Shown: piece after piece, positions 2,505 through 15,161 of the stretch
Layout of the letters: every line of letters begins with the position of its first letter
How positions within the stretch are numbered: the stretch's first letter is position 1
Assembly (NCBI GenBank): GCA_047616325.1
Contig: JBLHGN010000065.1
Coordinates: forward strand, 1-15,161
Reading direction: 5' to 3'
Length of the DNA stretch: 15,161 nt
From: Lentisphaeria bacterium
GTDB taxonomy: Bacteria; Pseudomonadota; Gammaproteobacteria; Pseudomonadales; Cellvibrionaceae
Notes under the pieces: generated by a model
The model's input: the letters and a program-made list of their open reading frames with translations, nothing else
Told to the model about the DNA's origin: nothing
Databases searched by the model: none
Program-made: the position numbers and the translations under genes

Positions 2505-2984
2505 TCATTGAGGGAGAGCGGTATTATTAGAATTCTTGTAGGCCATATTTATAGCTGCTGCAATATGCTGTAATGTCCAAATACTATTGGGGTGCAGCAT
2601 ATTTGAACCATGAGCAAGTGTATTTCGTAAATCAGGAGCAGCTTTGACGAACTTACCCACTAAGTCTAATGAATCTAGTGCTGCTTTAATTTCCTCTTCA
2701 GGCGATTCTTCAATAGGGATGCTATCACCCTCCTTTTTCAAGACACCAGATTGAATCACATCATACATTTCATTTTGTCTTGCTTTTCGGTATGCAATCT
2801 CCTCACGATATGAAAAATCTTCATTTTTTAGCCAGCCGCTCGTTCGTGCATATTTCAGCAAAGCACGTAACATAGGAGGATCTTTATCTGGATTTTCGTT
2901 AATATAGAGCTGTTTTAGCGCCATCTCTAAACTTGCATAAGCTACCATCTCAGAGACTTGATGAAAGCGATACACAAAGGGCAT
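2505..2984 (-). CDS. Small orphan protein with a C-terminal HEPN-like R-x4-H motif (LRNTLAHG); putative HEPN-family RNase/abortive-infection-like domain protein
   Basis: A 159-aa ORF. The R-N-T-L-A-H spacing fits the Rx4-6H HEPN signature near the C-terminus of a mostly helical-looking protein. No MNT partner or antitoxin is visible. Its first ~12 codons overlap the start of the ISL3 fragment, and an alternative start at M13 (2948) is possible. Confidence 0.45.
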   Translation of the reverse strand: MPFVYRFHQVSEMVAYASLEMALKQLYINENPDKDPPMLRALLKYARTSGWLKNEDFSYREEIAYRKARQNEMYDVIQSGVLKKEGDSIPIEESPEEEIKAALDSLDLVGKFVKAAPDLRNTLAHGSNMLHPNSIWTLQHIAAAINMAYKNSNNTALPQ

Positions 2985-3731
2985 AAATACCTAACGCTGG
3001 CCTACCAGGTCGATCGCGACAATACGCGCTTACTGTGGATTGTAGAAGAGCGAACTGAAAAAACGATTCGCGCCTTCTTTGAGTTTCTTGGTCCAGAAAG
3101 AAGTCAACTATTAAAACATGTGTACTCTGACATGTGGCAACCCTATGTCAAGGTAATCTCAGAAATGGCCACCCAGGCGCTACATATATTGGATCGATTT
3201 AATGTTGTAGCTATGCGGCATAAGGCCATCGATGAAATTCGTGCGGGTGAACACAAGCAGTTAGTCGCCGACGGCTATGAGCCTGTTTTAAGGAAGTCTC
3301 GATGGTGCCTACTTAAGCGAAAACAGAATTTAACGTAGAATCAAGATATGAAATTGAAAACCTTGCTTGAATATAATTTGAAGAGCGTTAGGGCCTACCT
3401 GCTAAAAGAAGAATTCCATGCTTTCTGGGAATATGTATCTCCTTATTGGGCCGAACAATACCTTGACCGATGGTGTACTAGAGTAATGCGTGCTCGGCTC
3501 GAACCCATGAAAAAAGTCATCAAGACAATTCGCCGGCACAAGCCTCTTATATTGAATTGGTTTAGAGCAAAATAAGCATACTCAAGCGGCATTGTGGAGG
3601 GGCTAAATACCAAGGTAAAACTCACTACGAGAAAATCGTATGGTTTCAAAACCTATAAATGCGCTGAAATAGCCTTGTATCACTCGCTTGGGCGGTTACC
3701 CACTCCAGAAATGACCCACAGATTTTACTAA
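2961..3731 (+). pseudogene. ISL3-family DDE transposase, N-terminally truncated (about 170 aa missing) with two in-frame nonsense codons (TAG 3339-3341, TAA 3573-3575)
   Basis: Three collinear same-frame segments KGHKYLTLAYQVDRD...DMWQPYVKVI...HILDRFNVVAMRHKAIDEIR / ...AFWEYVSPYWAEQYLDRWCTRVMRARLEPMKKVIKTIRRHKPLILNWFRAK / AYSSGIVEGLNTKVKLTTRKSYGFKTYKCAEIALYHSLG. These match my memory of the ISL3 transposase core and C-terminus (KGHRY..., DMW..., ...ILNYFR..., SNGxIEGxNNKIKxIKRxAYGFRNF). Homology begins only at the KGH motif, so the first catalytic D and the N-terminal DNA-binding region are absent. Confidence 0.8.
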
Positions 3732-5159: not shown

Positions 5160-5357
5160 AAGTTTGCTGAGTATGCTCGTTTTCTGAAAAATATATTTTT
5201 TGCTAATGTTCAACCTTAGTATGTTTTGCCATTTATCACTCTTACAAAACATTTTTGCGGCGAACCTTTTGGAGTTTTGGCGAACGTGAAGGCTGACATT
5301 TAAGGGTGGACTTAGTCTAAAAACAAACATTTCGTAGTTAAATATTTGGGGGTTATA

Positions 5358-7445
5358 ATGTTCGCATCTTACCTTGGTAAGTATAAAAGTATCATCGTTT
5401 CTGTAGCGCTTTTTATTATTCTTGATGCCTCCGTACTAATACTTAACTTCTATATTTCGTTTGATATTTCGGAAGATGCGGCAGGGGTTAATTTGGCGGG
5501 CCGCCAGCGCATGCTTTCCCAGCGTATGGTGAAAAGCTTATTGGATATTGATTACTCCAGTGGGAATGTAGAAGTACAAAAAGCAAGCGTCGATGAATTA
5601 GCGTTCACAGTTTCGTTGTTCGATCGCACCCTTACAGCCTTTGATAGCGGCGGAGAGGCAGATGCCGCTGACGGCGGCAAGGTTATTCTCGGGCGAGTGA
5701 ATTCCGAGTCAGGACGCAAAGCCATTGAAAAAGCAAAAATATTGTGGGCTCCCTATAAATCACTGCTAGACCCCGTAATATTGCCTGAATCGCTTGAAAG
5801 AGAGCGTGCATTAGCTACGGCAATTTTCTATGCAAAACAAAACAATCTCACTTTGCTAAAACTGATGAATAATTTAACTGTCGACCTGGAAAATGTGGCC
5901 AAATCAAAAGCTACTCGGCTGAGAGTTATTCAGACAATAGGTATAAGTTTAGCAATTATTAACTTCTTTATCATTATTTTTCACTTTATTGGCGAGTTGA
6001 GAAATGGTGACAGAAAACTCGAAATTGCCGAGGGCGAAACCAAAAAAATACTTAATACGGTCAACGATGGGCTTTTTCTTGTCGATCGCAATTATACCAT
6101 TGCCTCGCAGTACTCCAAAAATGTACCGACGATGTTTGGCGAGTCGGATATCGCTGGTAAAACGCTCGATGCAGTTCTGGCCGAATTGGTGAGTAAGAAG
6201 GACATGGAGACTTCCAAGCGCTTTATAGGATTACTTTTTCGTGAAGATATAAAAAGTAATCTTATTGGTGATCTGAATCCTCTGCGAGAAATTGAAGTGA
6301 ATATTGCCGACGAGAATGGCGGTTATGTTAGCAAGCATCTAAGCTTTAAATTTTCTCGTGCCTATGAGAGCGGCGGCGTAAAAAATGTTTTGGTTACTGT
6401 AAATGATGTGACTGAAAAGGTGAGGCTAGAGCGCGAAATTACTATGGTAAAAGCGCAAACGGAACAGCATTTGGAGGTGTTAACCGGAATTTTACACACT
6501 AATCCAAATGTATTAAAACGTTTTGTAAGCGGTTGCTTTACCGGCCTTCATAGAATCAATCTGTTTTTGCGTGAGCCTGCAAAAACCGAAGTGGTTTTGA
6601 GAAAAAAATTGGATAGCATTTTTGTCGAAATTCACAGCATAAAAGGTGAGGCGGGCGCACTCGGTTTGAACGGCTTTCAGGAGCTTGCTCACAAATTTGA
6701 ATCGGACTTGGTCGAAATTAAAAAACGTGAGAAAATTGCCGGTGATGACTTTTTCCCCTTGGTTGTGCAATTAGATAAGCTGATACGGCATGCGGAAACC
6801 GTCGAAAACCTGTCTGATAAGCTCGTCGCCTTTGGCAAAAGCGACGCAGGGCTTGGCGCTCGAAGCAGTGCCAATGAATGGGAGCACCTGCACAACTTGG
6901 TGAAAACAGTTGCCACACGATGCGGGAAAAAGGTGGAGCTAGTGATGAGTGGGCTTACAGAGATCTCTCTTTCCAGTGGCCAGCGAAAACTAGTCAATGA
7001 TGTTAGTGTGCAATGCATTCGCAACGCGGTATTTCACGGCATTGAGCTTCCGAATGAGCGCATAGAAAATTACAAGAACGAGATCGGAAGAATCGATCTT
7101 CGATTAACGCAGTCTTCCTCTGGTGTGGTAGAGCTTAGTATTAAAGACGACGGCCGAGGCTTCGACTATCGAGCAATTCGAGAACAAGCGATTAAGGTGG
7201 GCTTCTGGGGCGAGCAAGAAATGGAAGCATGGGATAGTAAGAAATTAGCTTCACTTATTTTTGAGCCAGGCTTCTCTACAGCCCAAGAAGAGCAGATGGA
7301 CGCGGGCAGAGGCGTGGGAATGAATATTGTCAAAGAGCGTATTAAGCACTATCGCGGCAATATTCGCATATCCAGCCGTCCCTCCTTGGGAACACACTTT
7401 CTTATCTCTTTACCTCCTTTATTGGGTGAAGCCGCAGCGGCATAG
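5358..7445 (+). CDS. Membrane-bound CheA-like histidine kinase: TM - periplasmic PilJ/NarX-type sensor (NLAGRQRMLSQRM) - TM - PAS-like - HPt (HSIKGEAGALG) - CheA-type P3/P4 ATPase (IRNAVFHGIE, DDGRGFD, GRGVGMNIV); no CheW-like P5 domain
   Basis: The 699-aa ORF in the track starts at TTG 5346; I prefer ATG 5358, preceded by GGGGG. There are two hydrophobic segments (residues ~10-35 and ~190-215). The HPt and HATPase_c N, G1 and G2 boxes are characteristic of CheA. The protein ends about 40 aa after the G2 box. Confidence 0.8.
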   Translation: MFASYLGKYKSIIVSVALFIILDASVLILNFYISFDISEDAAGVNLAGRQRMLSQRMVKSLLDIDYSSGNVEVQKASVDELAFTVSLFDRTLTAFDSGGEADAADGGKVILGRVNSESGRKAIEKAKILWAPYKSLLDPVILPESLERERALATAIFYAKQNNLTLLKLMNNLTVDLENVAKSKATRLRVIQTIGISLAIINFFIIIFHFIGELRNGDRKLEIAEGETKKILNTVNDGLFLVDRNYTIASQYSKNVPTMFGESDIAGKTLDAVLAELVSKKDMETSKRFIGLLFREDIKSNLIGDLNPLREIEVNIADENGGYVSKHLSFKFSRAYESGGVKNVLVTVNDVTEKVRLEREITMVKAQTEQHLEVLTGILHTNPNVLKRFVSGCFTGLHRINLFLREPAKTEVVLRKKLDSIFVEIHSIKGEAGALGLNGFQELAHKFESDLVEIKKREKIAGDDFFPLVVQLDKLIRHAETVENLSDKLVAFGKSDAGLGARSSANEWEHLHNLVKTVATRCGKKVELVMSGLTEISLSSGQRKLVNDVSVQCIRNAVFHGIELPNERIENYKNEIGRIDLRLTQSSSGVVELSIKDDGRGFDYRAIREQAIKVGFWGEQEMEAWDSKKLASLIFEPGFSTAQEEQMDAGRGVGMNIVKERIKHYRGNIRISSRPSLGTHFLISLPPLLGEAAAA

Positions 7446-7453
7446 GCGATGTA

Positions 7454-7825
7454 ATGTTAAAGCTACTGGTAGTAGACGACTCCAATATTATTCGCCGGAA
7501 AATTCAGCGCGCGTGCATAAACGAAACGTTTGAAGTGGTGGGGCTGGCGGGTAACGGCATAGAAGCACTGCGACAGTTTGGTGACTTAGGCCCCGAGGTT
7601 GTGACAATGGATATCACCATGCCGCATATGGATGGCATTGAATGCGTGGAGGAAATGATAGGCAGAAATCCAAATGTGCGCATTTTAGTGGTGTCGGCTC
7701 TGGCCGACAAAGCCACTGGAATAGAGGCACTAGAAAAGGGCGCACGTGGCTTTTTATGCAAGCCTTTTAGTGACAAACAACTTAGCGATGCACTTTACGA
7801 ATTATCTGAGGACATACATGTCTGA
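7454..7825 (+). CDS. CheY-like single-domain response regulator (receiver domain only)
   Basis: A 123-aa ORF with the acidic pocket LLVVDDS, the phospho-acceptor region VVTMDITMPHMDG, the ILVVSA...KATG T/S position, and K in GARGFLCKPF. It starts 9 bp after the kinase stop. Confidence 0.9.
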   Translation: MLKLLVVDDSNIIRRKIQRACINETFEVVGLAGNGIEALRQFGDLGPEVVTMDITMPHMDGIECVEEMIGRNPNVRILVVSALADKATGIEALEKGARGFLCKPFSDKQLSDALYELSEDIHV

Positions 7826-8267
7826 ACAAGCACTTAAAGTATTTGTTGACGGGGTGGTCAATTATTTTCAACACACAGCCGACAAAGATGTAAAAGTTGG
7901 CGCCCCATATTTGGTGGAAAATAAACAGCCCAAAGCCTTTGGTTTTACGGGCATTATCGGCGTTTCGGGGCCCTATAAGGGTACCGTATATTTTACCGCG
8001 CCGCGTATTTTACTCACTCATCTTTTGTTGAGTATCGGAGAGTTGGACACCTCGCTTGCCAATGTTATGGATATTGTTGGTGAAGTGGCCAATACTATAT
8101 CCGGAAACGCACGTGCAAATTTCGGCAAAGAATTTATGATTTCTGTACCGGTTATGGTTGAGGGTGCGCCCAGCGCCATTCACCTACCCTGCCATTTGCG
8201 CTCTTACGTAATACCAATATATTGGAAAGCCTATAGTGCTGCTGTGGTGGTGTGTCTTGAGGTTTAG
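7818..8267 (+). CDS. CheX/CheC-family CheY-P phosphatase-like protein
   Basis: Start ATG 7818 (MSEQALKVF...) overlaps the CheY stop as ATGTCTGA and is preceded by GAGGA. The motif DIVGEVANTISGNARANFG fits the E-x2-N active-site signature of CheC/CheX/FliY. A GIIGVSG glycine-rich segment and the ~150-aa length fit CheX. Confidence 0.7.
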   Translation: MSEQALKVFVDGVVNYFQHTADKDVKVGAPYLVENKQPKAFGFTGIIGVSGPYKGTVYFTAPRILLTHLLLSIGELDTSLANVMDIVGEVANTISGNARANFGKEFMISVPVMVEGAPSAIHLPCHLRSYVIPIYWKAYSAAVVVCLEV

Positions 8268-8486: not shown

Positions 8487-8499
8487 CCCCCCCCCCCCC
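8487..8499. repeat. Homopolymeric C13 tract
   Basis: Thirteen consecutive C in the spacer between the cheX-like gene and the downstream operon. It falls inside a weak 75-codon GTG-initiated frame (8424..8651) that I do not call as a gene. Confidence 0.7.
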
Positions 8500-8641
8500 G
8501 CATGCCAATATCTACGTATAGCCTCATGTGGATCCTGGGCGGGCTCTTAGTGCTTGCCTTGTTGTTGCCCGCCTATATCCTTCAGATGCGCGTTCATTCC
8601 GTTGTAAAAATCGTTCAATCTGGTTGGTGTGTGACCTGCCA

Positions 8642-8693
8642 TTATATGTAAGTGTGTTTTATTACATGTAATATCTCGACATCTTACATGTAA
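8642..8693. promoter_or_regulatory. Three phased copies of the palindrome TTACATGTAA (8642-8651 degenerate TTATATGTAA; 8662-8671; 8684-8693), a putative operator array overlapping the promoter of the downstream operon
   Basis: The perfect 10-bp palindrome (12 bp as ATTACATGTAAT) occurs twice, plus a 1-mismatch copy. Centre-to-centre spacings are 20 and 22 bp. The array ends 18 bp before ATG 8711. Confidence 0.5.
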
Positions 8694-8710
8694 TAGGATA
8701 GTGTGGCCCT

Positions 8711-9343
8711 ATGAGTGAAAAAACATCAGCGCACTACCAGCGGGAATATCGCCGCCGGCTGCGAGATCAAGGTTTGGTAAAGAAAGAGGTGTGGGTGCTG
8801 CCGGAAAATGCCAAGCATTTGGGTAAGTTTGAAAAGATGCTGCGGGAACCCCTGAACCCATCGGATTTAACTAAAGGAGTGTTAAAAATGACCGAAATGA
8901 AACGTTGGACCACTACGACTCTTTTTGAGGTGCTGGCTGTCGAGCCGCTTTTTGATGGCGACCGAGCAATGGTGGAGCTTATTGATGGTGCTGAGCCAAG
9001 TTTGCATCTGGTGATGCATGAGTTTGGCGACTTGCCTTTGTTTTTAACTGTGGCGGGTGACCAGATAATTATCGATGCCGTGTTGTGGCCAAAAAGCGAA
9101 GTGGCGGACATCTCTGGGTTTAATGATGCAGTGCTGAGAACCCATAAGTATTTTCCGCTATCCACCATTAGTCTAGACACCCTATCGAGCGGGGCCGACT
9201 ACTATCAAATGTTTGGTGCTTTGAGTGCAAGCTCAATTTTGCCAAATATCATTTTTGAAATAGAGATGTTGGCATCCAATGTGATTCAGGCTACCGAAGC
9301 CTATGCCAATTTTTTATCAAACCAACTAAATGTGAAGGTGTGA
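8711..9343 (+). CDS. Two-part ORF: N-terminal basic/ribbon-helix-helix-like segment (YQREYRRRLRDQGLVKKEVWVLPENAKHLGKFEKML) in frame with a YjfI/DUF2170-like (YbjN-clan) domain; the DUF2170 part may be translated independently from ATG 8888
   Basis: A 210-aa frame. K-x-V-x-V-x-LPE followed by a helix is the Arc/MetJ/CopG beta-strand signature. The internal ATG 8888 (MTEMKRW...) has a strong AAGGAG RBS 8 nt upstream, whereas ATG 8711 has a weak RBS. The C-terminal 150 aa are called YjfI-like mainly from synteny, being immediately upstream of a YjfJ-type PspA gene, and from overall character. Confidence 0.55.
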   Translation: MSEKTSAHYQREYRRRLRDQGLVKKEVWVLPENAKHLGKFEKMLREPLNPSDLTKGVLKMTEMKRWTTTTLFEVLAVEPLFDGDRAMVELIDGAEPSLHLVMHEFGDLPLFLTVAGDQIIIDAVLWPKSEVADISGFNDAVLRTHKYFPLSTISLDTLSSGADYYQMFGALSASSILPNIIFEIEMLASNVIQATEAYANFLSNQLNVKV

Positions 9344-9353
9344 GGAGAGGTAA

Positions 9354-10037
9354 ATGAATGTCTGGGCGAAAATGATGACAGCGTTGCGCGGTGGAGTAAA
9401 TGAGGCGGGTGAGTTGATTGTCGATACTCAAGCCCTGCGTATTCTGGATCAAGAGGTGCGCGGTGCCACTGAGGAATTGAAACAGTCAAAAGAGGGTTTG
9501 GCGAGTATAATCGCCCGACAAAAGTTGGCGGAAGAAAAAACCGCGCTACTGCAAAAAGACATTAGCGATTATGAGGGCTATGCTGTAAAGGCTCTCGAGA
9601 AGGGTGACGAGTCGCTTGCCTTAGAGGTTGCGCAAAAAATAGCCAATCTGGAAAATGGCATGTCGACCGAGAAAAAAACCGCAGAGAGCTTTGCTGAAAG
9701 TGCTACAGAGCTCCGCAATGCCATGAAATTGGCCGAGCAGAACATTAAAAGGCTGAAGCAGCAGATCGACACCGTTAAGGCCACAGACAGTGTGCAAAAA
9801 GCGCAGGCGACTGTAGCAGCGCGATACAGTGGTTCAAACTCTAAATTGCGCACAGCGATGGATTCGCTAGACCGAATAAAAGAGAAGCAAGCCCTTAAAA
9901 GCGCGCAAATGAAAGCTGCTAATGAGCTTGCTGCAGAGACAGTAGACGATACATTGCAAACTAAGCTGCAAGCGGCTGGCATTACATCTTCTGGTGCTAG
10001 CGCCCAAGATGTCTTGGACCGTTTAAAAAAGGCTTAG
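9354..10037 (+). CDS. yjfJ: PspA/IM30 (ESCRT-III-like) family protein, YjfJ-type paralog
   Basis: A 227-aa ORF with a GAGGAGAGG RBS. RILDQEVRGATEEL and YAVKALEKGDESLALEV align with E. coli YjfJ RMLEQHIRDAKAEL and AIKALESGDEAFALEV. It is an alpha-helical, coiled-coil-rich protein. Confidence 0.8.
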   Translation: MNVWAKMMTALRGGVNEAGELIVDTQALRILDQEVRGATEELKQSKEGLASIIARQKLAEEKTALLQKDISDYEGYAVKALEKGDESLALEVAQKIANLENGMSTEKKTAESFAESATELRNAMKLAEQNIKRLKQQIDTVKATDSVQKAQATVAARYSGSNSKLRTAMDSLDRIKEKQALKSAQMKAANELAAETVDDTLQTKLQAAGITSSGASAQDVLDRLKKA

Positions 10038-10057
10038 TTGTGTTTATATAACAATAG

Positions 10058-10132
10058 GCTCGCCGAGTTTCGGTGAGCTCTAGCTAGCGTCCTATTTGTA
10101 GGCGAGCACTAGCTAATTGAAGGGCAATTAGC
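10058..10132 (+). other. Structured intergenic RNA region: two 8-bp-stem hairpins (10058-10078 GCTCGCCG-AGTTT-CGGTGAGC; 10112-10132 GCTAATTG-AAGGG-CAATTAGC) and a 14-bp direct repeat GYGAGCWCTAGCTA (10073-10088, 10102-10117); no U-tract
   Basis: Read directly from the sequence. It lies between the PspA-like and NfeD-like genes. It is not a canonical intrinsic terminator because both hairpins are followed by mixed sequence rather than a T-run. Confidence 0.35.
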
Positions 10133-10203
10133 AGAGCCGTACCCGCCTTACGGGAATAAGCTGTAAATAAAAAAATTAATGTAATAGGGTTGGGAGAACG
10201 CCG

Positions 10204-10872
10204 ATGTTTGCAATTTTGCTCACCGATAAAACGGACGGTTTTTATTCAATAGTTCTAACCTTTCCAACGGTAATATTCTCATTCTTGCTCATTGTTAGTC
10301 TCATCTATTGGCTGATTTCATTTCTAGGCGTGATAGATCTAGATATGCTTGATGCAGATGTGGATGGCGCAATGGGGGGCGACGATGTCGGTATGCCAAG
10401 CTCCGTAGCTGGTTTGGCGATGAGGCTGGGTTTAAACGGCGTGCCGTTGCCTATCATAATTTCACTTATTGCCATATTTTCTTGGTCGATTAGCTATTAC
10501 TCCGTGCACTTTATGTATCCTTTTGTACCTGGGTTTCTGGAGTGGTTAGCCGGAATTGTGATTTTGTTTGGTAGTTTATATTTGGCCATATTAATAACGG
10601 CACAAATTATCAAGCCGATACGCAGGTTGTTTAAGCAGGCGGATCAGCAAGTGGAAAAACATATCGTTGGGCGCATCGGCGTTGTTAGAACGGGGCGAGT
10701 AGATAAGTGTTTTGGTGAGGCGGTAGTGGAAGATGGTGGGGCGGGTTTAGTGGTAAAGGTTCGCTCATTTAAAGATGAGGAGTTTTCGCGGGGGGATCGT
10801 ATCGTTCTTTTAGAGTACGTGGCGTCTGGAAATATTTATAAAGTGATTTCAGAAAAAGATTTTAATAAATAA
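10204..10872 (+). CDS. yqiJ: NfeD-like inner-membrane protein with C-terminal OB-fold (YqiJ/DUF1449-like), partner of the downstream SPFH protein
   Basis: A 222-aa ORF with a GGAGAA RBS. It has three to four hydrophobic helices and a C-terminal beta-rich segment IVGRIGVVRTGRVDKCFGEAVVEDGGAGLVVKVRSF...GDRIVLLEY typical of the NfeD OB-fold. It is followed 23 bp later by a flotillin gene, as in E. coli yqiJK. Confidence 0.7.
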   Translation: MFAILLTDKTDGFYSIVLTFPTVIFSFLLIVSLIYWLISFLGVIDLDMLDADVDGAMGGDDVGMPSSVAGLAMRLGLNGVPLPIIISLIAIFSWSISYYSVHFMYPFVPGFLEWLAGIVILFGSLYLAILITAQIIKPIRRLFKQADQQVEKHIVGRIGVVRTGRVDKCFGEAVVEDGGAGLVVKVRSFKDEEFSRGDRIVLLEYVASGNIYKVISEKDFNK

Positions 10873-10895
10873 TTTAATGGTTAAGGAGTAAGGCT

Positions 10896-12854
10896 ATGCT
10901 GTCGGAATATATTGCTAATTTTGGCCCGCTAGTAGTTATTTGTGGGTTTGTAATAACTTTATTGTTGGGTGTGGGGGTTTGGTTTAAATCCTTCTACGTT
11001 AAAGTAGAGCAGGGTGTGGCTCTAATTAAAAATGATATGGGTCCAAAGCCGAAGGTATTTTTTACGGGAACCTTTGTCTACCCAGTTATTCATAAAAAAG
11101 AATTAATGCGAATTTCCCTGATTACCATGGAGGTCGATCGTCGCGGAAAAGATGGTCTCATTTGCAAAGATAATATGCGTGCGGATATCACCGTTGCGTT
11201 TTACCTTCGAGTGAATGAAACCCCTGAAGATGTATTAAAGGTAGCCAAGTCTCTGGGTGCAAATCGTGCCTCGGATAAGGACGCTGTAAGCGAGTTATTT
11301 AATGCCAAATTTTCTGAGGCTTTAAAAACTGTTGGCAAGCAAATTGATTTTGTCAATTTGTTTGAAAATAGACAGCAGTTTCGCGACAAAATTATCGAAG
11401 TTATTGGTAACGACCTCAACGGTTATGTGCTCGAAGACGTCGCTATCGACTATCTGGAACAAACGCCAAAATCTTCACTCGACCCTAGCAATATTCTCGA
11501 CGCCGAGGGGATACGTAAAATTACTGAATTGACGGCTACCCAAAACATTAAAACCAATGTTTTTGAGCGCGATGAAGAGTTGGCAATTAAAAAGAAGAAT
11601 GTTGAAACAAGAGAGGCCATGTTAGAGCTGGAGCGTCAGCAGGCCGATGCCGAGGCTAGGCAGGAAAGAGAAGTTGCGAGCATACGGGCACGAGAAGAAG
11701 CAGAAACTGTGAAAGTGCAAGAGGAAGAACGATTAAAGTCAGAGAGTTCTACCATTCAAACAGATCAGGACCTTGCCGTGCAAACGGAAAACCAAAAGCG
11801 GGAAATTGAAGTGGCCGAACAGAATCGCCAGCGCGCGGTTGTGATTGAGGTTGAAAAGGTTACACGAGCGAAAGATTTAGAAATTGTCTCCCGTGAGAGG
11901 GAGGTAGAGCTACAGCGTATAGAGGCCGAGAAGGCCGTAGAGATACAGCGCAAAGAGATTGCAAATGTAATTCGTGAGCGTGTTGCAGTAGATAAAACTG
12001 TAGCCATGGAAGAAGAGAAAATTAAAGAAGTACGCGAAGTCTCTGAGGCCGATCGTCGCAAGCAAACTAAAATTTTAGATGCAGAAGCCTTGGCAGAAGA
12101 GAAAAAAGTAGAAGAAGTTAAAAAAGCAGAAGGGGAAGAGTTAGCCGCAAAACACCGTGCTGTAGAAATTACCGTATTGGCCCAGGCTAACTTGGAGGCC
12201 TCGGCGAAAGAAGCCGATTCTCAGAAGAAATTGGCCGATGGCATACAGGCCACTCGGGCGGCTCCTGGGCTGGCCGACGCAAAAGTGCAAGAGGCAAATG
12301 CCGATGCATTTGAAAAAGAAGGCTTGGCAAAGGCGCGAGTCATTGCAGCTCAGGGCGAATCTGAAGCAACTGTTACCAGTTCAGTGGGTACAGCAGAGGC
12401 AAGTGTTATCGCCCAAAAGGGAAGTTCAGAGGCACAATCCAAGCGCGAGATAGGGCTTGCTGGAGCTGAAGTAATTCGTCAAACCTTTAAGGCAGAAGCG
12501 GATGGCTTGGTGGACAAATTTGAAGCCATGAATAGCATGAGCGACAAAGCGCGAGACCATGAAGAATTCCGTATGGGTCTAGAAACAGCATTGAAAGAAG
12601 TACTTGCTTCCATTGAAGCAGGAAAAGAGATCGCGAAAGAAAATGCCGATGTGTTGGCGGCTGCACTTCAAACGGCCAAAATTGATATCGTGGGTGGCGA
12701 AGAGCACTTCTTTGATAACTTTGCGAAATCACTTTCTATCGGTAAGGCCGTTGACGGACTAGCCGATAAAAGTGGCATCATTCAAGCGATACTGGCGAAA
12801 GTGATGGAAACCAGTGCGGCTAGAAATGCAGAAACCACTACAGAAATAAGCTAG
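10896..12854 (+). CDS. yqiK: SPFH/band-7 flotillin-like membrane protein (YqiK-like) with a long E/K/A/R-rich coiled-coil region
   Basis: A 652-aa ORF with an AAGGAG RBS. It has an N-terminal TM helix and an SPFH core (VALIKNDMGPKPKVFFTGTFVYPVIHKKELMRISLITMEVD...RADITVAFYLRV). About 250 aa of heptad-like E/K/R/A-rich sequence follow. The C-terminus is flotillin-like (DIVGG..., GIIQAIL). Confidence 0.85.
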   Translation: MLSEYIANFGPLVVICGFVITLLLGVGVWFKSFYVKVEQGVALIKNDMGPKPKVFFTGTFVYPVIHKKELMRISLITMEVDRRGKDGLICKDNMRADITVAFYLRVNETPEDVLKVAKSLGANRASDKDAVSELFNAKFSEALKTVGKQIDFVNLFENRQQFRDKIIEVIGNDLNGYVLEDVAIDYLEQTPKSSLDPSNILDAEGIRKITELTATQNIKTNVFERDEELAIKKKNVETREAMLELERQQADAEARQEREVASIRAREEAETVKVQEEERLKSESSTIQTDQDLAVQTENQKREIEVAEQNRQRAVVIEVEKVTRAKDLEIVSREREVELQRIEAEKAVEIQRKEIANVIRERVAVDKTVAMEEEKIKEVREVSEADRRKQTKILDAEALAEEKKVEEVKKAEGEELAAKHRAVEITVLAQANLEASAKEADSQKKLADGIQATRAAPGLADAKVQEANADAFEKEGLAKARVIAAQGESEATVTSSVGTAEASVIAQKGSSEAQSKREIGLAGAEVIRQTFKAEADGLVDKFEAMNSMSDKARDHEEFRMGLETALKEVLASIEAGKEIAKENADVLAAALQTAKIDIVGGEEHFFDNFAKSLSIGKAVDGLADKSGIIQAILAKVMETSAARNAETTTEIS

Positions 12855-12862
12855 TCATAGGG

Positions 12863-12914
12863 CTACGCCAAATATTGATTTTTTTTTAAGTTGTTGGTCG
12901 ATTATTTGGCGTAG
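12863..12914. repeat. 12-bp perfect inverted repeat CTACGCCAAATA / TATTTGGCGTAG around a 28-nt T-rich loop containing T9; possible attenuator- or terminator-like element or protein-binding site
   Basis: Arms at 12863-12874 and 12903-12914. It starts 9 bp after the flotillin stop and ends 30 bp before the next start. Confidence 0.3.
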
Positions 12915-12944
12915 TTAACATAGGTTTTAAGTTGGAGAGATGCT

Positions 12945-13268
12945 GTGAGCGAATTCAGTGATATTACTCAAGCCTTGGTAGAAAAAGTAAGGCTGGCAGG
13001 AGTAGATGTCGATTCGGAGCTGCTACAAAAAAGTGGCACTATCGCTAAGAATCTGAAGGCAGGCATTGGCCCCGTATCTGGTGCTGGTCTTGGTCTTGGT
13101 GTTGGCGCGATGATGTCTGCAAAGAATGGAAAATTGATCGAGAACGTTTTGCTCGGGGCGGGTGTTGGTGCTCTTTTAGGTTGGACCCTAAAAGAGTTTA
13201 TGTGTGAAAAAAAGCCTGCCGGTAAAGCGCTTCTCGATAGCACCGCCACGGACATTATTCACAAGTAA
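12945..13268 (+). CDS. Small glycine-zipper membrane-associated protein (two GxxxG-type zippers: GIGPVSGAGLGLGVGAMM and GAGVGALLGW)
   Basis: A 107-aa ORF with a GTG start 5 nt after a GGAGAG RBS. It has an amphipathic N-terminus followed by Gly-zipper segments. Confidence 0.55.
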   Translation: MSEFSDITQALVEKVRLAGVDVDSELLQKSGTIAKNLKAGIGPVSGAGLGLGVGAMMSAKNGKLIENVLLGAGVGALLGWTLKEFMCEKKPAGKALLDSTATDIIHK

Positions 13269-13362
13269 TCTTTATGTCTATCTAATAGTCTAAGATTTGG
13301 AACCTTAGAAAACTAAAATCCCCGATAACAGTGTGTTACCTCGGCTATGGATAAGGTGTCGT

Positions 13363-15161
13363 ATGTCGGAAAAAATAGAGAATAATTCGGAAATGTTGGT
13401 CGGTCAAGCAGTAGCAGAGGGCGGTGCGTACGAAGTTATAAAGCGACGCCTCACCGAGCAGGGTAATCGCTTAATTGATCGCGTTGATATTCTAAATAAG
13501 GCGCGCCTGAGTGAGTTTGGAACCTCAGACATGGCGGTCGCCGCGCGCACGAGAGTGCGTACAGAAAACAATTGTATCGCGCGTGACATTGTCCAAGTGG
13601 GCGACTGCCTGTTATTTGGCTACAACGTATTTATAGGCTTAAAAAAAGAAACCTTAGTAAACGATGTTTTTGCGGTGTTTAGTTTGGATCACAGCGGTGA
13701 TCAGTATGAGATGCAGAAAATAAAAACAGAGGATACTTTTTTAGGTGACGAGAGATTTGCCAAGGACTTTCACGAACTCTATCACTACTACAAGCAGACC
13801 CGACTGCAAGAAATTTCAGTAAAAGACGGCAAGCTTTTAATGGGTTTCCAAATAGGCGAACGCTTAGAGGCGGTACGCGTATTTCGCTGGTCGATTTCAG
13901 CTGACGGCACCAAAGTTGAATACATCGACAATCGCGGTGAGCGCGATATTCAGCTACCGCCAGCCTATGATTTTGAGTGGCAGCAATGCACGCGCGAAGA
14001 CGTGGTTCACGGGCGCCACGCCCACGTTAATATTCTAGATACAGTTTTTATCGAGACCATAGCGGGTGACCTGACGCTTAAGGTAGAAAATAACACCGAC
14101 GAAGGTGAGGGAATATACCGCGAAGAGGTTGACAGCAAGACGCAGTCTATTGACGACGCTGAATTTTGGTTCGCAAAACTTGGCGATTTGATTTTATTAA
14201 AAGTATTGCCCTATCAAGAAGAAATATGGCGATACCTTGTTTTTAATACTCTTACACAAAAGGTTAATCGTATCGACGCCATTGGCGCTTCCTGCGTGCA
14301 ATTGCCAGAAGACCACGGCATTGTTTTTCCCGGTGGTTATTACCTGCAGTCGGGTGAGTATAAAACTTACGACGACGAAACCGAAGGCTTAAAATTTAAG
14401 CGAATGATTCGCTCCCCCAATGGAGAAGATGTTCTCTATGTGTTTTACGAGCCGGTCAACGGGCTTTTTGCTTTGCTGGCTTATAATATGATCAACAAGG
14501 CTTTGCTGAACCCCATCGTAGGCCACGGTTACGCTCTAGCAGGCGACGGCACCTTAGTGATTTTTTCTGCTGAGGGGGAACCCACTCGTATACACCCTAT
14601 GCAAATCTGGAATACTCCCTACGTCAGTGATGAGTTCGCCAGCAAACAGCCGGAGAGCCAAACATTTTTTGGTCGGATCGGTAACGCGCCATTGGTAAGA
14701 GGTATTTCCGATCTATACAGCGTTGGCCGCGTTGCGCTAAACCAATCTGTTTCGGCGCGTGTGTACGAAGAGCTTAGCAAAGCAGCTCTAAAGATTTTCG
14801 ACGATCATTTTTGGGTTTTGGATAACCAGCTCAACGAAGTATTGGCGGTAGAGGGCGAGTCGAATAATACAGGCGATGAAAATACCCTTGAGCGATTGCT
14901 ACGGGGCGTTTCCGATACGGCAGAGTTGGCTATAGACGAATTCGAAAAAGTTGAAAGCATCAGCCAGCAATCTGCTTTTGCACTAAAAGACGCTATGGCG
15001 GCGCAAAATAGTTTAGTCAGTTTGGTCACCACATCATCCTGGGAAACCGTAGAAGAATATGTTGGTGCGCTGGATGACATTCGCAAACAGCGCGGCCACG
15101 TGGCTACTATAAAAGATTATCGTTATATCGACGTAGACAAGTTGAAGCAAATGGATGAGAA
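13363..15161 (+). CDS. Large conserved-looking hypothetical protein of at least 599 aa, with no stop before the window end; no motif I recognise
   Basis: My own translation from ATG 13363 runs without a stop codon to position 15161 (MSEKIENNSEMLVGQAVAEGGAYEVIKRRLTEQGNRLIDRVDILNKARLSEFG...DIRKQRGHVATIKDYRYIDVDKLKQMDE). The RBS is AAGGTG 4 nt upstream. It has mixed alpha/beta character and no P-loop in the part visible. It is absent from the ORF track, presumably because it has no in-window stop. Confidence 0.7.
   Translation, partial: MSEKIENNSEMLVGQAVAEGGAYEVIKRRLTEQGNRLIDRVDILNKARLSEFGTSDMAVAARTRVRTENNCIARDIVQVGDCLLFGYNVFIGLKKETLVNDVFAVFSLDHSGDQYEMQKIKTEDTFLGDERFAKDFHELYHYYKQTRLQEISVKDGKLLMGFQIGERLEAVRVFRWSISADGTKVEYIDNRGERDIQLPPAYDFEWQQCTREDVVHGRHAHVNILDTVFIETIAGDLTLKVENNTDEGEGIYREEVDSKTQSIDDAEFWFAKLGDLILLKVLPYQEEIWRYLVFNTLTQKVNRIDAIGASCVQLPEDHGIVFPGGYYLQSGEYKTYDDETEGLKFKRMIRSPNGEDVLYVFYEPVNGLFALLAYNMINKALLNPIVGHGYALAGDGTLVIFSAEGEPTRIHPMQIWNTPYVSDEFASKQPESQTFFGRIGNAPLVRGISDLYSVGRVALNQSVSARVYEELSKAALKIFDDHFWVLDNQLNEVLAVEGESNNTGDENTLERLLRGVSDTAELAIDEFEKVESISQQSAFALKDAMAAQNSLVSLVTTSSWETVEEYVGALDDIRKQRGHVATIKDYRYIDVDKLKQMDE

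Follow-up and report, generated by a model that had tools for sequence, protein, structure and literature searches.

A co-directional run of six open reading frames (ORFs) fills the + strand from position 8711 to 15161, the end of the window, by which we mean the whole analysed stretch of 15,161 nt (contig JBLHGN010000065.1 of NCBI GenBank assembly GCA_047616325.1). We consider this run, at a probability of about 0.7, to be the orthologue of the bac operon of Pseudomonas aeruginosa, comprising bacA, bacB, bacC, bacD and the gene of a large ATPase, and to encode an inducible module for maintenance or remodelling of the inner membrane that is controlled by BacA and operators. The combination of genes is already known, both as bacABCDE(F) of P. 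aeruginosa and as an operon class of Ravi et al. 2024. Since it has been described computationally and partly studied in P. aeruginosa, the window holds an orthologue and not a new system. What is new here, and undescribed as far as the examined literature shows, is the regulatory architecture of the operon.

Gene order and relation to known systems

In P. aeruginosa, Mace et al. 2008 defined the cluster PA3729-PA3732 ('biofilm-associated cluster'), whose PspA-like member PA3731 is induced by osmotic shock and is required for biofilm formation, swarming, rhamnolipid production and virulence. Wallart et al. 2024 enlarged this cluster to six co-transcribed genes, bacA to bacF, by reverse transcription PCR (RT-PCR) over all junctions in strain PA14, found BacB to BacF to be raised 6-13-fold in a bacA mutant, and solved the crystal structure of BacA (PA14_16140, PDB 8q8o). 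The accessible passages of Ravi et al. 2024 (mSystems) describe an operon class CesT-PspA-flotillin-AAA+, with a PLD gene in some members, as well as abbreviated versions without the first two genes.

The six ORFs of the window, all of them found on the + strand as listed in a preliminary description made from the sequence alone, are separated by gaps of 10, 166, 23, 90 and 94 nt and encode the following products (lengths in amino acids, aa).

8711-9343, + strand: bacA orthologue, 210 aa; basic N-terminal domain, variable linker and CesT/Tir-like DUF2170 domain; putatively an autorepressor and the partner of BacB
9354-10037, + strand: bacB orthologue, 227 aa; YjfJ-type PspA/IM30 protein (ESCRT-III-like)
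10204-10872, + strand: bacC orthologue, 222 aa; YqiJ/YuaF-type protein with three predicted transmembrane (TM) helices and a C-terminal beta-rich domain
10896-12854, + strand: bacD orthologue, 652 aa; YqiK-type flotillin with N-terminal TM helix, SPFH/band-7 domain, long E/A-rich coiled coil and flotillin C-terminus
12945-13268, + strand: orphan gene, 107 aa; glycine-zipper-like, in a variable slot between bacD and the ATPase gene
13363-15161, + strand: 5' part of the bacE orthologue, 599 of 1814 codons; N-terminal helix, DUF3686 beta-propeller (residues 37-483) and start of the helical stalk

Compared with bacABCDEF of P. aeruginosa (PA3732-PA3727 / PA14_16140-16200), the first four genes correspond one for one and are followed by a DUF3686-AAA+ ATPase gene, with order and strand unchanged. 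Both operons also have the palindromes, the geometry of the promoter and the internal Shine-Dalgarno (SD) sequence with ATG that are treated below. The two differ in the orphan 107-aa gene inserted between bacD and the ATPase gene of the window, and in the rhomboid gene lying 3' of the ATPase gene here, where P. aeruginosa has the PLD-like bacF. They differ also in the published description, which for P. aeruginosa holds a short BacA (16 kDa, crystal 8q8o) and a proposed sigma54 promoter. In our P. aeruginosa locus (L083) the same gene order is followed by a PLD-like gene, and because this order and the coordinates of the PA14 transcription unit place it so, the large protein of the window is the orthologue of BacE (PA14_16190) and bacF (PA14_16200) is the PLD-like gene.

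The conservation of this arrangement was followed in a scan with one genome per species, which gave relatives of the ATPase in at least 594 species representatives. The best 80 loci were analysed; gene order was counted in the 66 with enough flanking sequence and the rhomboid in 71, with the following outcome.

A-B-C-D-ATPase: 49 of 66 loci
C-D-ATPase only (Providencia, Xenorhabdus, Proteus, Motilimonas and others): 15 of 66 loci
B without A: 2 of 66 loci
Rhomboid directly 3' of the ATPase gene: 34 of 71 loci
PLD-like gene nearby: about 30 loci

The synteny is therefore not confined to one strain. C-D-ATPase, present in all 66 informative loci, is the invariant core, and bacA-bacB (a frequent add-on, with bacB directly 3' of bacA in 49 of the 66), the rhomboid, the PLD-like gene, a TerB-like gene and the orphan gene of the window are accessories. 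The gene of the TerB-like protein (79 aa; MSEPRDYLEMSFRSIQCF...DGRLD...) is found repeatedly in bac operons but in changing places (L041 9565-9804, L015 6723-6959, L010 17224-17436 and others), namely in the bacD/ATPase gap in Pseudomonas, in the bacB/bacC gap in Hahella and Oleiphilaceae, and downstream in Cellvibrio.

The domain inventory in the accessible passages of Ravi et al. 2024 is exactly that of the window operon, and the form lacking CesT and PspA is the one met here in 15 of 66 loci; the optional extra named in these passages is a PLD gene and not a rhomboid, and the N-terminal head of the DUF2170 protein, operators, a leaderless start and an internal start are not mentioned in them.

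Homologous domains (DUF2170, PspA_IM30, YqiJ and YqiK) are encoded by yjfI-yjfJ and yqiJ-yqiK of Escherichia coli, where yqiJK stands alone with no ATPase or PspA gene adjoining. E. coli YjfI consists of 133 aa with the DUF2170 domain and is not known to carry the basic head. The idea that the operon fuses the yjfIJ and yqiJK types with extra partners thus holds insofar as they form one conserved module in 49 of 66 loci, but the combination is not new.

The host of the operon is probably a marine gammaproteobacterium related to Cellvibrionales. The deposit is a metagenome-assembled genome labelled 'Lentisphaeria bacterium' (ACI9Y1_001425), and the bac proteins of the window are 60-76% identical to counterparts from Agarilytica, Cellvibrionaceae and Alteromonadaceae; the contig is probably a gammaproteobacterial one that was mis-binned as Lentisphaeria.

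Upstream region of bacA and the BacA protein

Cross-species comparison supports, and published data are consistent with, a role of long BacA as a putative autorepressor acting on operators that overlap a leaderless sigma70 promoter. The elements concerned lie directly upstream of and within bacA.

8641-8652, no strand: operator-like palindrome O3, ATTATATGTAAG, with 2 mismatches to ATTACATGTAAT
8661-8672, no strand: operator O1, ATTACATGTAAT, a perfect 12-nt palindrome directly 5' of the -35 box
8676-8681, + strand: -35 box TCGACA of a sigma70-type promoter
8683-8694, no strand: operator O2, CTTACATGTAAT, with 1 mismatch, in the promoter spacer
8699-8704, + strand: -10 box TAGTGT, ending 6 nt before the bacA ATG
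8711-8845, + strand: N-terminal domain of BacA, residues 1-45; helix 6-19, extended GLVKKEVWVLP segment, helix 31-45
8874-8890, + strand: internal SD (AAGGAG, 8874-8879) and in-frame ATG (Met60, 8888-8890); predicted DUF2170-only isoform of 151 aa

O3, O1 and O2 are spaced 20 and 22 nt apart. Three or more matches to the palindrome were also obtained in 9 of 200 shuffles of the window, so that the array taken alone is only mildly improbable, and it becomes decisive because the palindromes are conserved across species. The palindrome yTACATGTrA was found upstream of bacA in 54 loci from many genera, with an O1-type core that in nearly all cases lies at -50 (+/-2) relative to the bacA start codon, an O2-type copy fixed at -27 (+/-1) in related loci and a third copy near -73 in 8 of the 54. 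In about 50 species, the -35 box is flanked on either side by a constant palindrome whose position is fixed. The 150-nt regions upstream of bacA in these 54 loci hold 110 motif matches, compared with 12 scattered singles in the other 1.55 Mb, and among the related loci the motif is absent upstream of operons without bacA. The operator array that had been noticed in the window is thus real, its palindromes behaving as operators by their conserved position.

The promoter geometry is conserved as well: a TTGAnn -35 box is followed by a 17-nt spacer (46 of 53 loci) and a TAnnnT -10 box, which in 48 of 53 loci ends 6-7 nt before the ATG; the bacA mRNA is hence predicted to be leaderless. A generic promoter and terminator scan of the window gave no more matches than expected from shuffles, and the weak -10 box of the bacA promoter caused this promoter to be missed; Rfam and tRNA scans of the window were empty. 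In PA14, differential RNA sequencing placed the transcription start of PA14_16140 at 1374599, 177 nt 5' of the annotated start (Wurtzel 2012, Table S3), and in the P. aeruginosa locus this position is exactly the A of the ATG of the long ORF. What precedes it, at a distance of 7 nt, is a TAGTGT -10 box paired with a TTGAAA -35 box and not a GG-N10-GC element, so that the start fits a sigma70-type promoter and not the sigma54 site that was proposed from sequence inspection.

This bears on an alternative in which the operon follows the classical Psp scheme, with a sigma54 promoter, BacA as a protein-binding anti-activator or chaperone, and the palindromes bound by an unlinked factor. RpoN sites have indeed been proposed upstream of PA3732 (Mace 2008, Wallart 2024), the body of BacA has the fold of type III secretion chaperones and YbjN, members of which regulate through protein partners, and DNA binding by the BacA head is a prediction from sequence. 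The two systems are also alike in that a PspA-family effector is encoded with its own partner protein controlling the operon, and in that the bac orthologue is induced by osmotic stress. However, no enhancer-binding protein was found among the called or Pfam-annotated genes of the P. aeruginosa locus and of the Logan contig L001, which extends the window (see below), and no PspF-, PspB- or PspC-like product among the window ORFs and the called genes of the same two sequences, the 80 related loci not having been searched for either. No conserved sigma54 promoter is present at the bac operon, the conserved one being sigma70-like; the region upstream of the operators is not conserved in related loci; the mapped PA14 start belongs to the TAGTGT/TTGAAA promoter; the published sigma54 site was placed relative to the short bacA annotation; and the BacA head and the palindromes co-occur, both being absent from operons without bacA. 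Whereas Psp control works by anti-activation of an enhancer-binding protein, the bac logic would be repression by a putative DNA-binding CesT-like protein, and we regard the Psp scheme as unlikely here.

BacA itself is readily assigned. Residues 66-202 match Pfam DUF2170 (164.7 bits), and the NCBIfam equivalog NF050185 'biofilm formation regulator BacA' (311 bits, cut-off 300) is matched over the full length (1-204 of 206); residues 61-203 match PDB 8q8o at E 1.5e-39, and the AlphaFold2 (AF2) model of BacA, with a predicted local distance difference test score (pLDDT) of 82, superposes on 8q8o with a Foldseek TM-score of 0.92-0.94. Ahead of this body lies the head, with the consensus MKAKSSAHYQREYRRRLREQGLVKKEVWILPENAKQLxxxEKLLR, which is strongly conserved in more than 1400 homologues and followed by a variable linker. 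Among 24 divergent sequences 19 residues of the head are invariant, and the entropy at its codon positions (0.66/0.44/1.45) concentrates variation at third positions; therefore, the head is translated. The 'RHH-like' (ribbon-helix-helix) head in frame with DUF2170 that had been noticed in the window is, by both measures, real and conserved.

A head-profile search also retrieved stand-alone proteins of 44-80 aa (P0300-P0385, alignment A6) that correspond to the head alone, with basic helix, GLV-x-x-E-V-W-I-x-P strand and helix, and judged by these sequences the head is an autonomous module. Matches to PF11455 'MazE-like', none of which reaches the 22-bit cut-off, were obtained for 12 of 24 BacA heads, with a best E of 0.0023, and for 11 of 30 stand-alone relatives, with a best E of 9.6e-5; searches of PDB sequences with the head profile and with the profile of the stand-alone domain gave no relative. 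We infer that the head is a DNA-binding domain, distantly MazE-like. The likeness to RHH/MazE-like antitoxins (PF11455) would lie in a small basic dimeric head, palindromes over the own promoter and repression modulated by a partner, all predicted on the bac side; the similarity is sub-threshold, and BacA differs from these antitoxins in the order helix, strand, helix of its head, in the chaperone-like body to which this head is joined and in the absence of a toxin gene.

Within bacA, a second start is conserved. The SD/anti-SD duplex at the internal ATG has a median of -8.7 kcal/mol in 49 loci versus -2.5 at other codons, only 1% of which reach -8.7, and because the SD is kept although the amino acids encoded there differ between lineages, selection appears to act on the RNA. 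Met60 is the annotated start of PA3732/PA14_16140 and of the crystallised 8q8o protein, from both of which the head is absent, and RsmA has been reported to bind directly around this internal SD in P. aeruginosa. A conserved internal SD and ATG in a region reportedly targeted by RsmA make two BacA isoforms likely. For the P. aeruginosa gene (L083 5722-6342), the mapped start and cross-species conservation indicate a 206-aa BacA product as well. On this basis we tentatively propose, at slightly less than even odds, that bacA acts as a two-isoform switch, in which a full-length, head-bearing repressor would be made from the leaderless mRNA and a head-less form from the internal start, the ratio of isoforms and the pool of free BacB setting expression in place of sigma54/Psp-like control.

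Membrane proteins, the large ATPase and the neighbourhood

The PspA/IM30, YqiJ and flotillin types assigned to the next three genes in the preliminary description were borne out, with the directness of the evidence differing between them: BacA, the PspA-like protein and the ATPase were placed directly by profile searches, but the YqiJ and YqiK types only by profile-profile comparison. BacB matches Pfam PspA_IM30 (PF04012) over residues 2-226 with 152.2 bits (cut-off 33.9). For the YqiJ-like and flotillin-like proteins, single-sequence and profile hidden Markov model searches of Pfam, NCBIfam and PDB sequences gave nothing useful: BacC has no Pfam match, NfeD included, and BacD none either, with a weak NCBIfam FloT match. 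Comparison with the E. coli proteins by hhalign settled the question, a BacD profile of 22 orthologues aligning to YqiK with 99.9% probability (E 3.2e-33, 32% identity, 409 columns) and a BacC profile of 21 orthologues aligning to YqiJ with 87.6% probability (E 3.5e-6, 138 columns), which is moderate support. A survey of SPFH proteins from 2026 lists the P. aeruginosa counterpart of BacD, PA14_16180, among them under the name PaFlo3.

Two hairpins lie in the gaps after bacB and bacD, and may tune relative expression within the operon.

10056-10082: stable hairpin after bacB, without U-tract
12861-12916, + strand: hairpin after bacD, without U-tract; minimum free energy -28.3 kcal/mol, z-score -3.2

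The latter is possibly an mRNA-stability or attenuating element. In PA14 a second transcription start lies 129 nt upstream of PA14_16180 (bacD), inside bacC (Wurtzel 2012, Table S3), so that in this strain the flotillin/ATPase part may have a promoter of its own within the operon.

The fifth gene, earlier described as encoding a Gly-zipper protein, turned out to be an orphan belonging to no family. Its 107-aa product has glycine-zipper matches that are all sub-threshold, no homologue except itself was found among 5.8 billion protein clusters, and none of the 80 related loci contains a counterpart. Its codon usage fits coding (+0.20 in frame and negative in the other frames), and GGAGAG is located 5 nt before its GTG start.

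The large protein had been considered impossible to place, which no longer applies: it is recognisable as a DUF3686/DUF7902/AAA+ ATPase. An exact-protein look-up yielded the Logan contig L001, which is 100% identical to window 8487-15161 and continues 4.7 kb further, so that the last gene could be completed to 1814 aa. The complete protein contains DUF3686 (37-483; E 1e-200 for the part in the window), DUF7902 (621-703), a long helical/coiled-coil region and one AAA+ module (1314-1433), with Walker A PPGYGKTT and Walker B LYLDD read from the L001 sequence; the feature that marks membership of the family, a large AAA+ ATPase with N-terminal beta-propeller, is thus present. Its AF2 model has a pLDDT of 89.8, and structure searches with residues 1-599 gave beta-propeller and helical-bundle matches only. 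No significant PDB sequence match was obtained for the ATPase, and a search of the literature on DUF3686 found nothing. An ESCRT-III-superfamily polymer encoded together with an AAA+ ATPase recalls the ESCRT-III/Vps4 pair; unlike Vps4, the bac ATPase combines a beta-propeller with a long stalk, it yielded no MIT domain, and it is constantly accompanied by the flotillin pair and not by PspA.

In Pfam, DUF3686 carries the description 'ATPase involved in DNA repair', which NCBI follows in naming the family (13363-15161 and homologues P0121-P0240) and many of its members 'DNA repair ATPase'. If taken at face value, the large protein would be a DNA-repair ATPase fortuitously linked to membrane genes. 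Against this stands the fact that its gene follows the YqiJ-like/flotillin pair in every one of the 66 informative loci and, in PA14, is co-transcribed with that pair and rises with it in the bacA mutant; furthermore, no nuclease, helicase or DNA-binding domain was detected by Pfam and PDB sequence searches or by fold searches of residues 1-599, the fold of residues 600-1814 not having been searched. We regard a repair function with chance linkage as extremely improbable and, because the linkage to the flotillin and YqiJ-like genes is invariant, judge the database name to be probably misleading.

Beyond the ATPase gene, L001 carries a rhomboid gene (191 aa) that begins 18 nt after the ATPase stop codon, followed by a convergent gene for a small protein with two TM helices. 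The rhomboid matches PF01694 with 61.9 bits, and its catalytic motifs, with the GxSG serine and the TM6 histidine, are intact, HLLNN, GASG, SHLFGAISG and HxxxN being read directly. A tblastn search found no PLD-like sequence in L001, a PLD/HKD-like bacF as in the strict six-gene form being absent after the ATPase gene.

PspA and SPFH proteins have been discussed in defence contexts, and a role in phage- or toxin-induced membrane damage had been suggested for the operon, in which case it would be a conflict system whose large ATPase answers membrane damage with an abortive or a protective reaction. In favour of this, the surroundings resemble a genomic island, with a candidate defence ATPase of PADLOC (PDC-S01, 529 bits) and disrupted ISL3 transposase genes in the left part of the window, and about 30 loci have a gene of the PLD/HKD family together with the operon. 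However, no PADLOC model is matched by any of the seven products of the operon: BacA, BacC, BacD, the orphan, the ATPase and the rhomboid gave no match, and BacB gave weak coiled-coil noise only. The order of the operon is stable across many genera, as in a core chromosomal module, and the phenotypes in P. aeruginosa are osmotic induction, biofilm formation, swarming and virulence. With nothing supporting it from these searches, we hold a conflict role to be quite improbable.

Likewise, the operon had been placed downstream of a dedicated sensor-kinase module, of which it could be the output. The module (window 5346-8267, + strand) is compact and chemosensory-like, with a membrane-bound CheA-like kinase (PilJ-type N-terminal sensor, Hpt and HATPase), a stand-alone CheY (7454-7825) and a CheX phosphatase ending at 8267; it is co-directional with the operon and ends 443 nt upstream of bacA. 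But a CheA/CheX-like gene was detected at none of the 80 related loci, and the sole CheY-like match (L020) has 24% identity and lies about 10 kb away on the opposite strand, so that the adjacency is an accident of this contig and a functional link was rejected. Moreover, the CheY of the window is a stand-alone receiver without DNA-binding output, the operon has its own conserved promoter and operators, and the junction between module and operon spans a poly-C run at which an independent assembly breaks. An operon dedicated to this kinase is hence highly improbable. The run comprises 13 C at window 8487-8499, between the CheX gene and the bac promoter, and L001 ends inside a longer poly-C run at the same place; the left half of the window is joined on by one assembly, across a homopolymer.

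Further to the left, the window contains the following.

412-1656, - strand: 414-aa AAA_14 + DUF4143 ATPase, PADLOC candidate family PDC-S01, 529 bits
2958-3731, + strand: ISL3-family transposase pseudogene in three ORFs (2958-3338, 3348-3575 and 3594-3731)

Proposed mechanism and meaning for the family

Several points weigh against the reading of the six genes as an inducible, BacA-controlled membrane module. DNA binding by the BacA head, like the role given to the ATPase, is deduced from sequence; the PF11455 matches are all below the Pfam threshold, no solved structure matches the head by sequence, and in the AF2 monomer the head is modelled with moderate confidence (pLDDT 64-79) and shows an extended segment instead of a paired strand. 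Both Mace 2008 and Wallart 2024 proposed a sigma54 promoter, from sequence inspection alone. No MIT-like PspA-binding domain was identified in the ATPase. The evidence for co-transcription is RT-PCR in P. aeruginosa PA14 and not in this organism, and the additional PA14 start 5' of bacD together with the hairpins of the window implies that expression is not simply one uniform transcript. Deletion of PaFlo3 led to only about 20% less biofilm and to no strong stress phenotype (2026 SPFH survey), and the orphan fifth gene is left unexplained by the bac-operon reading.

Taking the bac-operon reading as preferred, we propose the following course of events. Transcription from a sigma70-type promoter, whose -35 box is bracketed and whose spacer is filled by two palindromes of 10-12 bp (yTACATGTrA), would begin at the A of the bacA start codon and yield a leaderless mRNA. 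Long BacA would be a dimer in which a basic MazE/RHH-like head of 45 residues sits on a CesT-like body for dimerisation and partner binding; the head would bind the TTACATGTAA sites and repress the operon, and such autorepression by the long form would explain why the operon is derepressed in the bacA mutant. The CesT-like body would in turn bind the PspA-like BacB, for which AF2 predicts an interaction with a probability of 0.981 and which is also cited in the literature as unpublished interaction partner of BacA. Short BacA and/or binding of BacB to the body would then set the level of repression and couple expression to free BacB. The head-less isoform might heterodimerise with, or compete against, the full-length repressor, and would chaperone BacB.

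At the membrane, homology and gene linkage suggest that BacB is an ESCRT-III-like polymer that would coat stressed membrane, and that BacC and BacD are an NfeD-like/flotillin pair that would build an SPFH scaffold on the cytoplasmic face. By the same token, the beta-propeller and coiled-coil stalk of the ATPase would engage assemblies of BacB, BacC and BacD or their clients, its single AAA+ ring would remodel or disassemble these assemblies in a Vps4-like role, and the rhomboid would cleave membrane-protein clients.

The window thus contributes one more orthologue with lineage-specific accessories to a widespread family, of which at least 594 species representatives carry the ATPase. In this family, three machines that shape membranes, namely a PspA resembling ESCRT-III, a scaffold of SPFH/flotillin type and a giant AAA+ ATPase, are brought together in an operon that in P. 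aeruginosa affects biofilm formation, swarming, rhamnolipid production and virulence. The predicted DNA-binding head, the conserved operators, the leaderless start matching the published start map and the internal start provide a handle on its induction, and they suggest that a truncated annotation of bacA underlies both the available crystal structure and the published promoter model.

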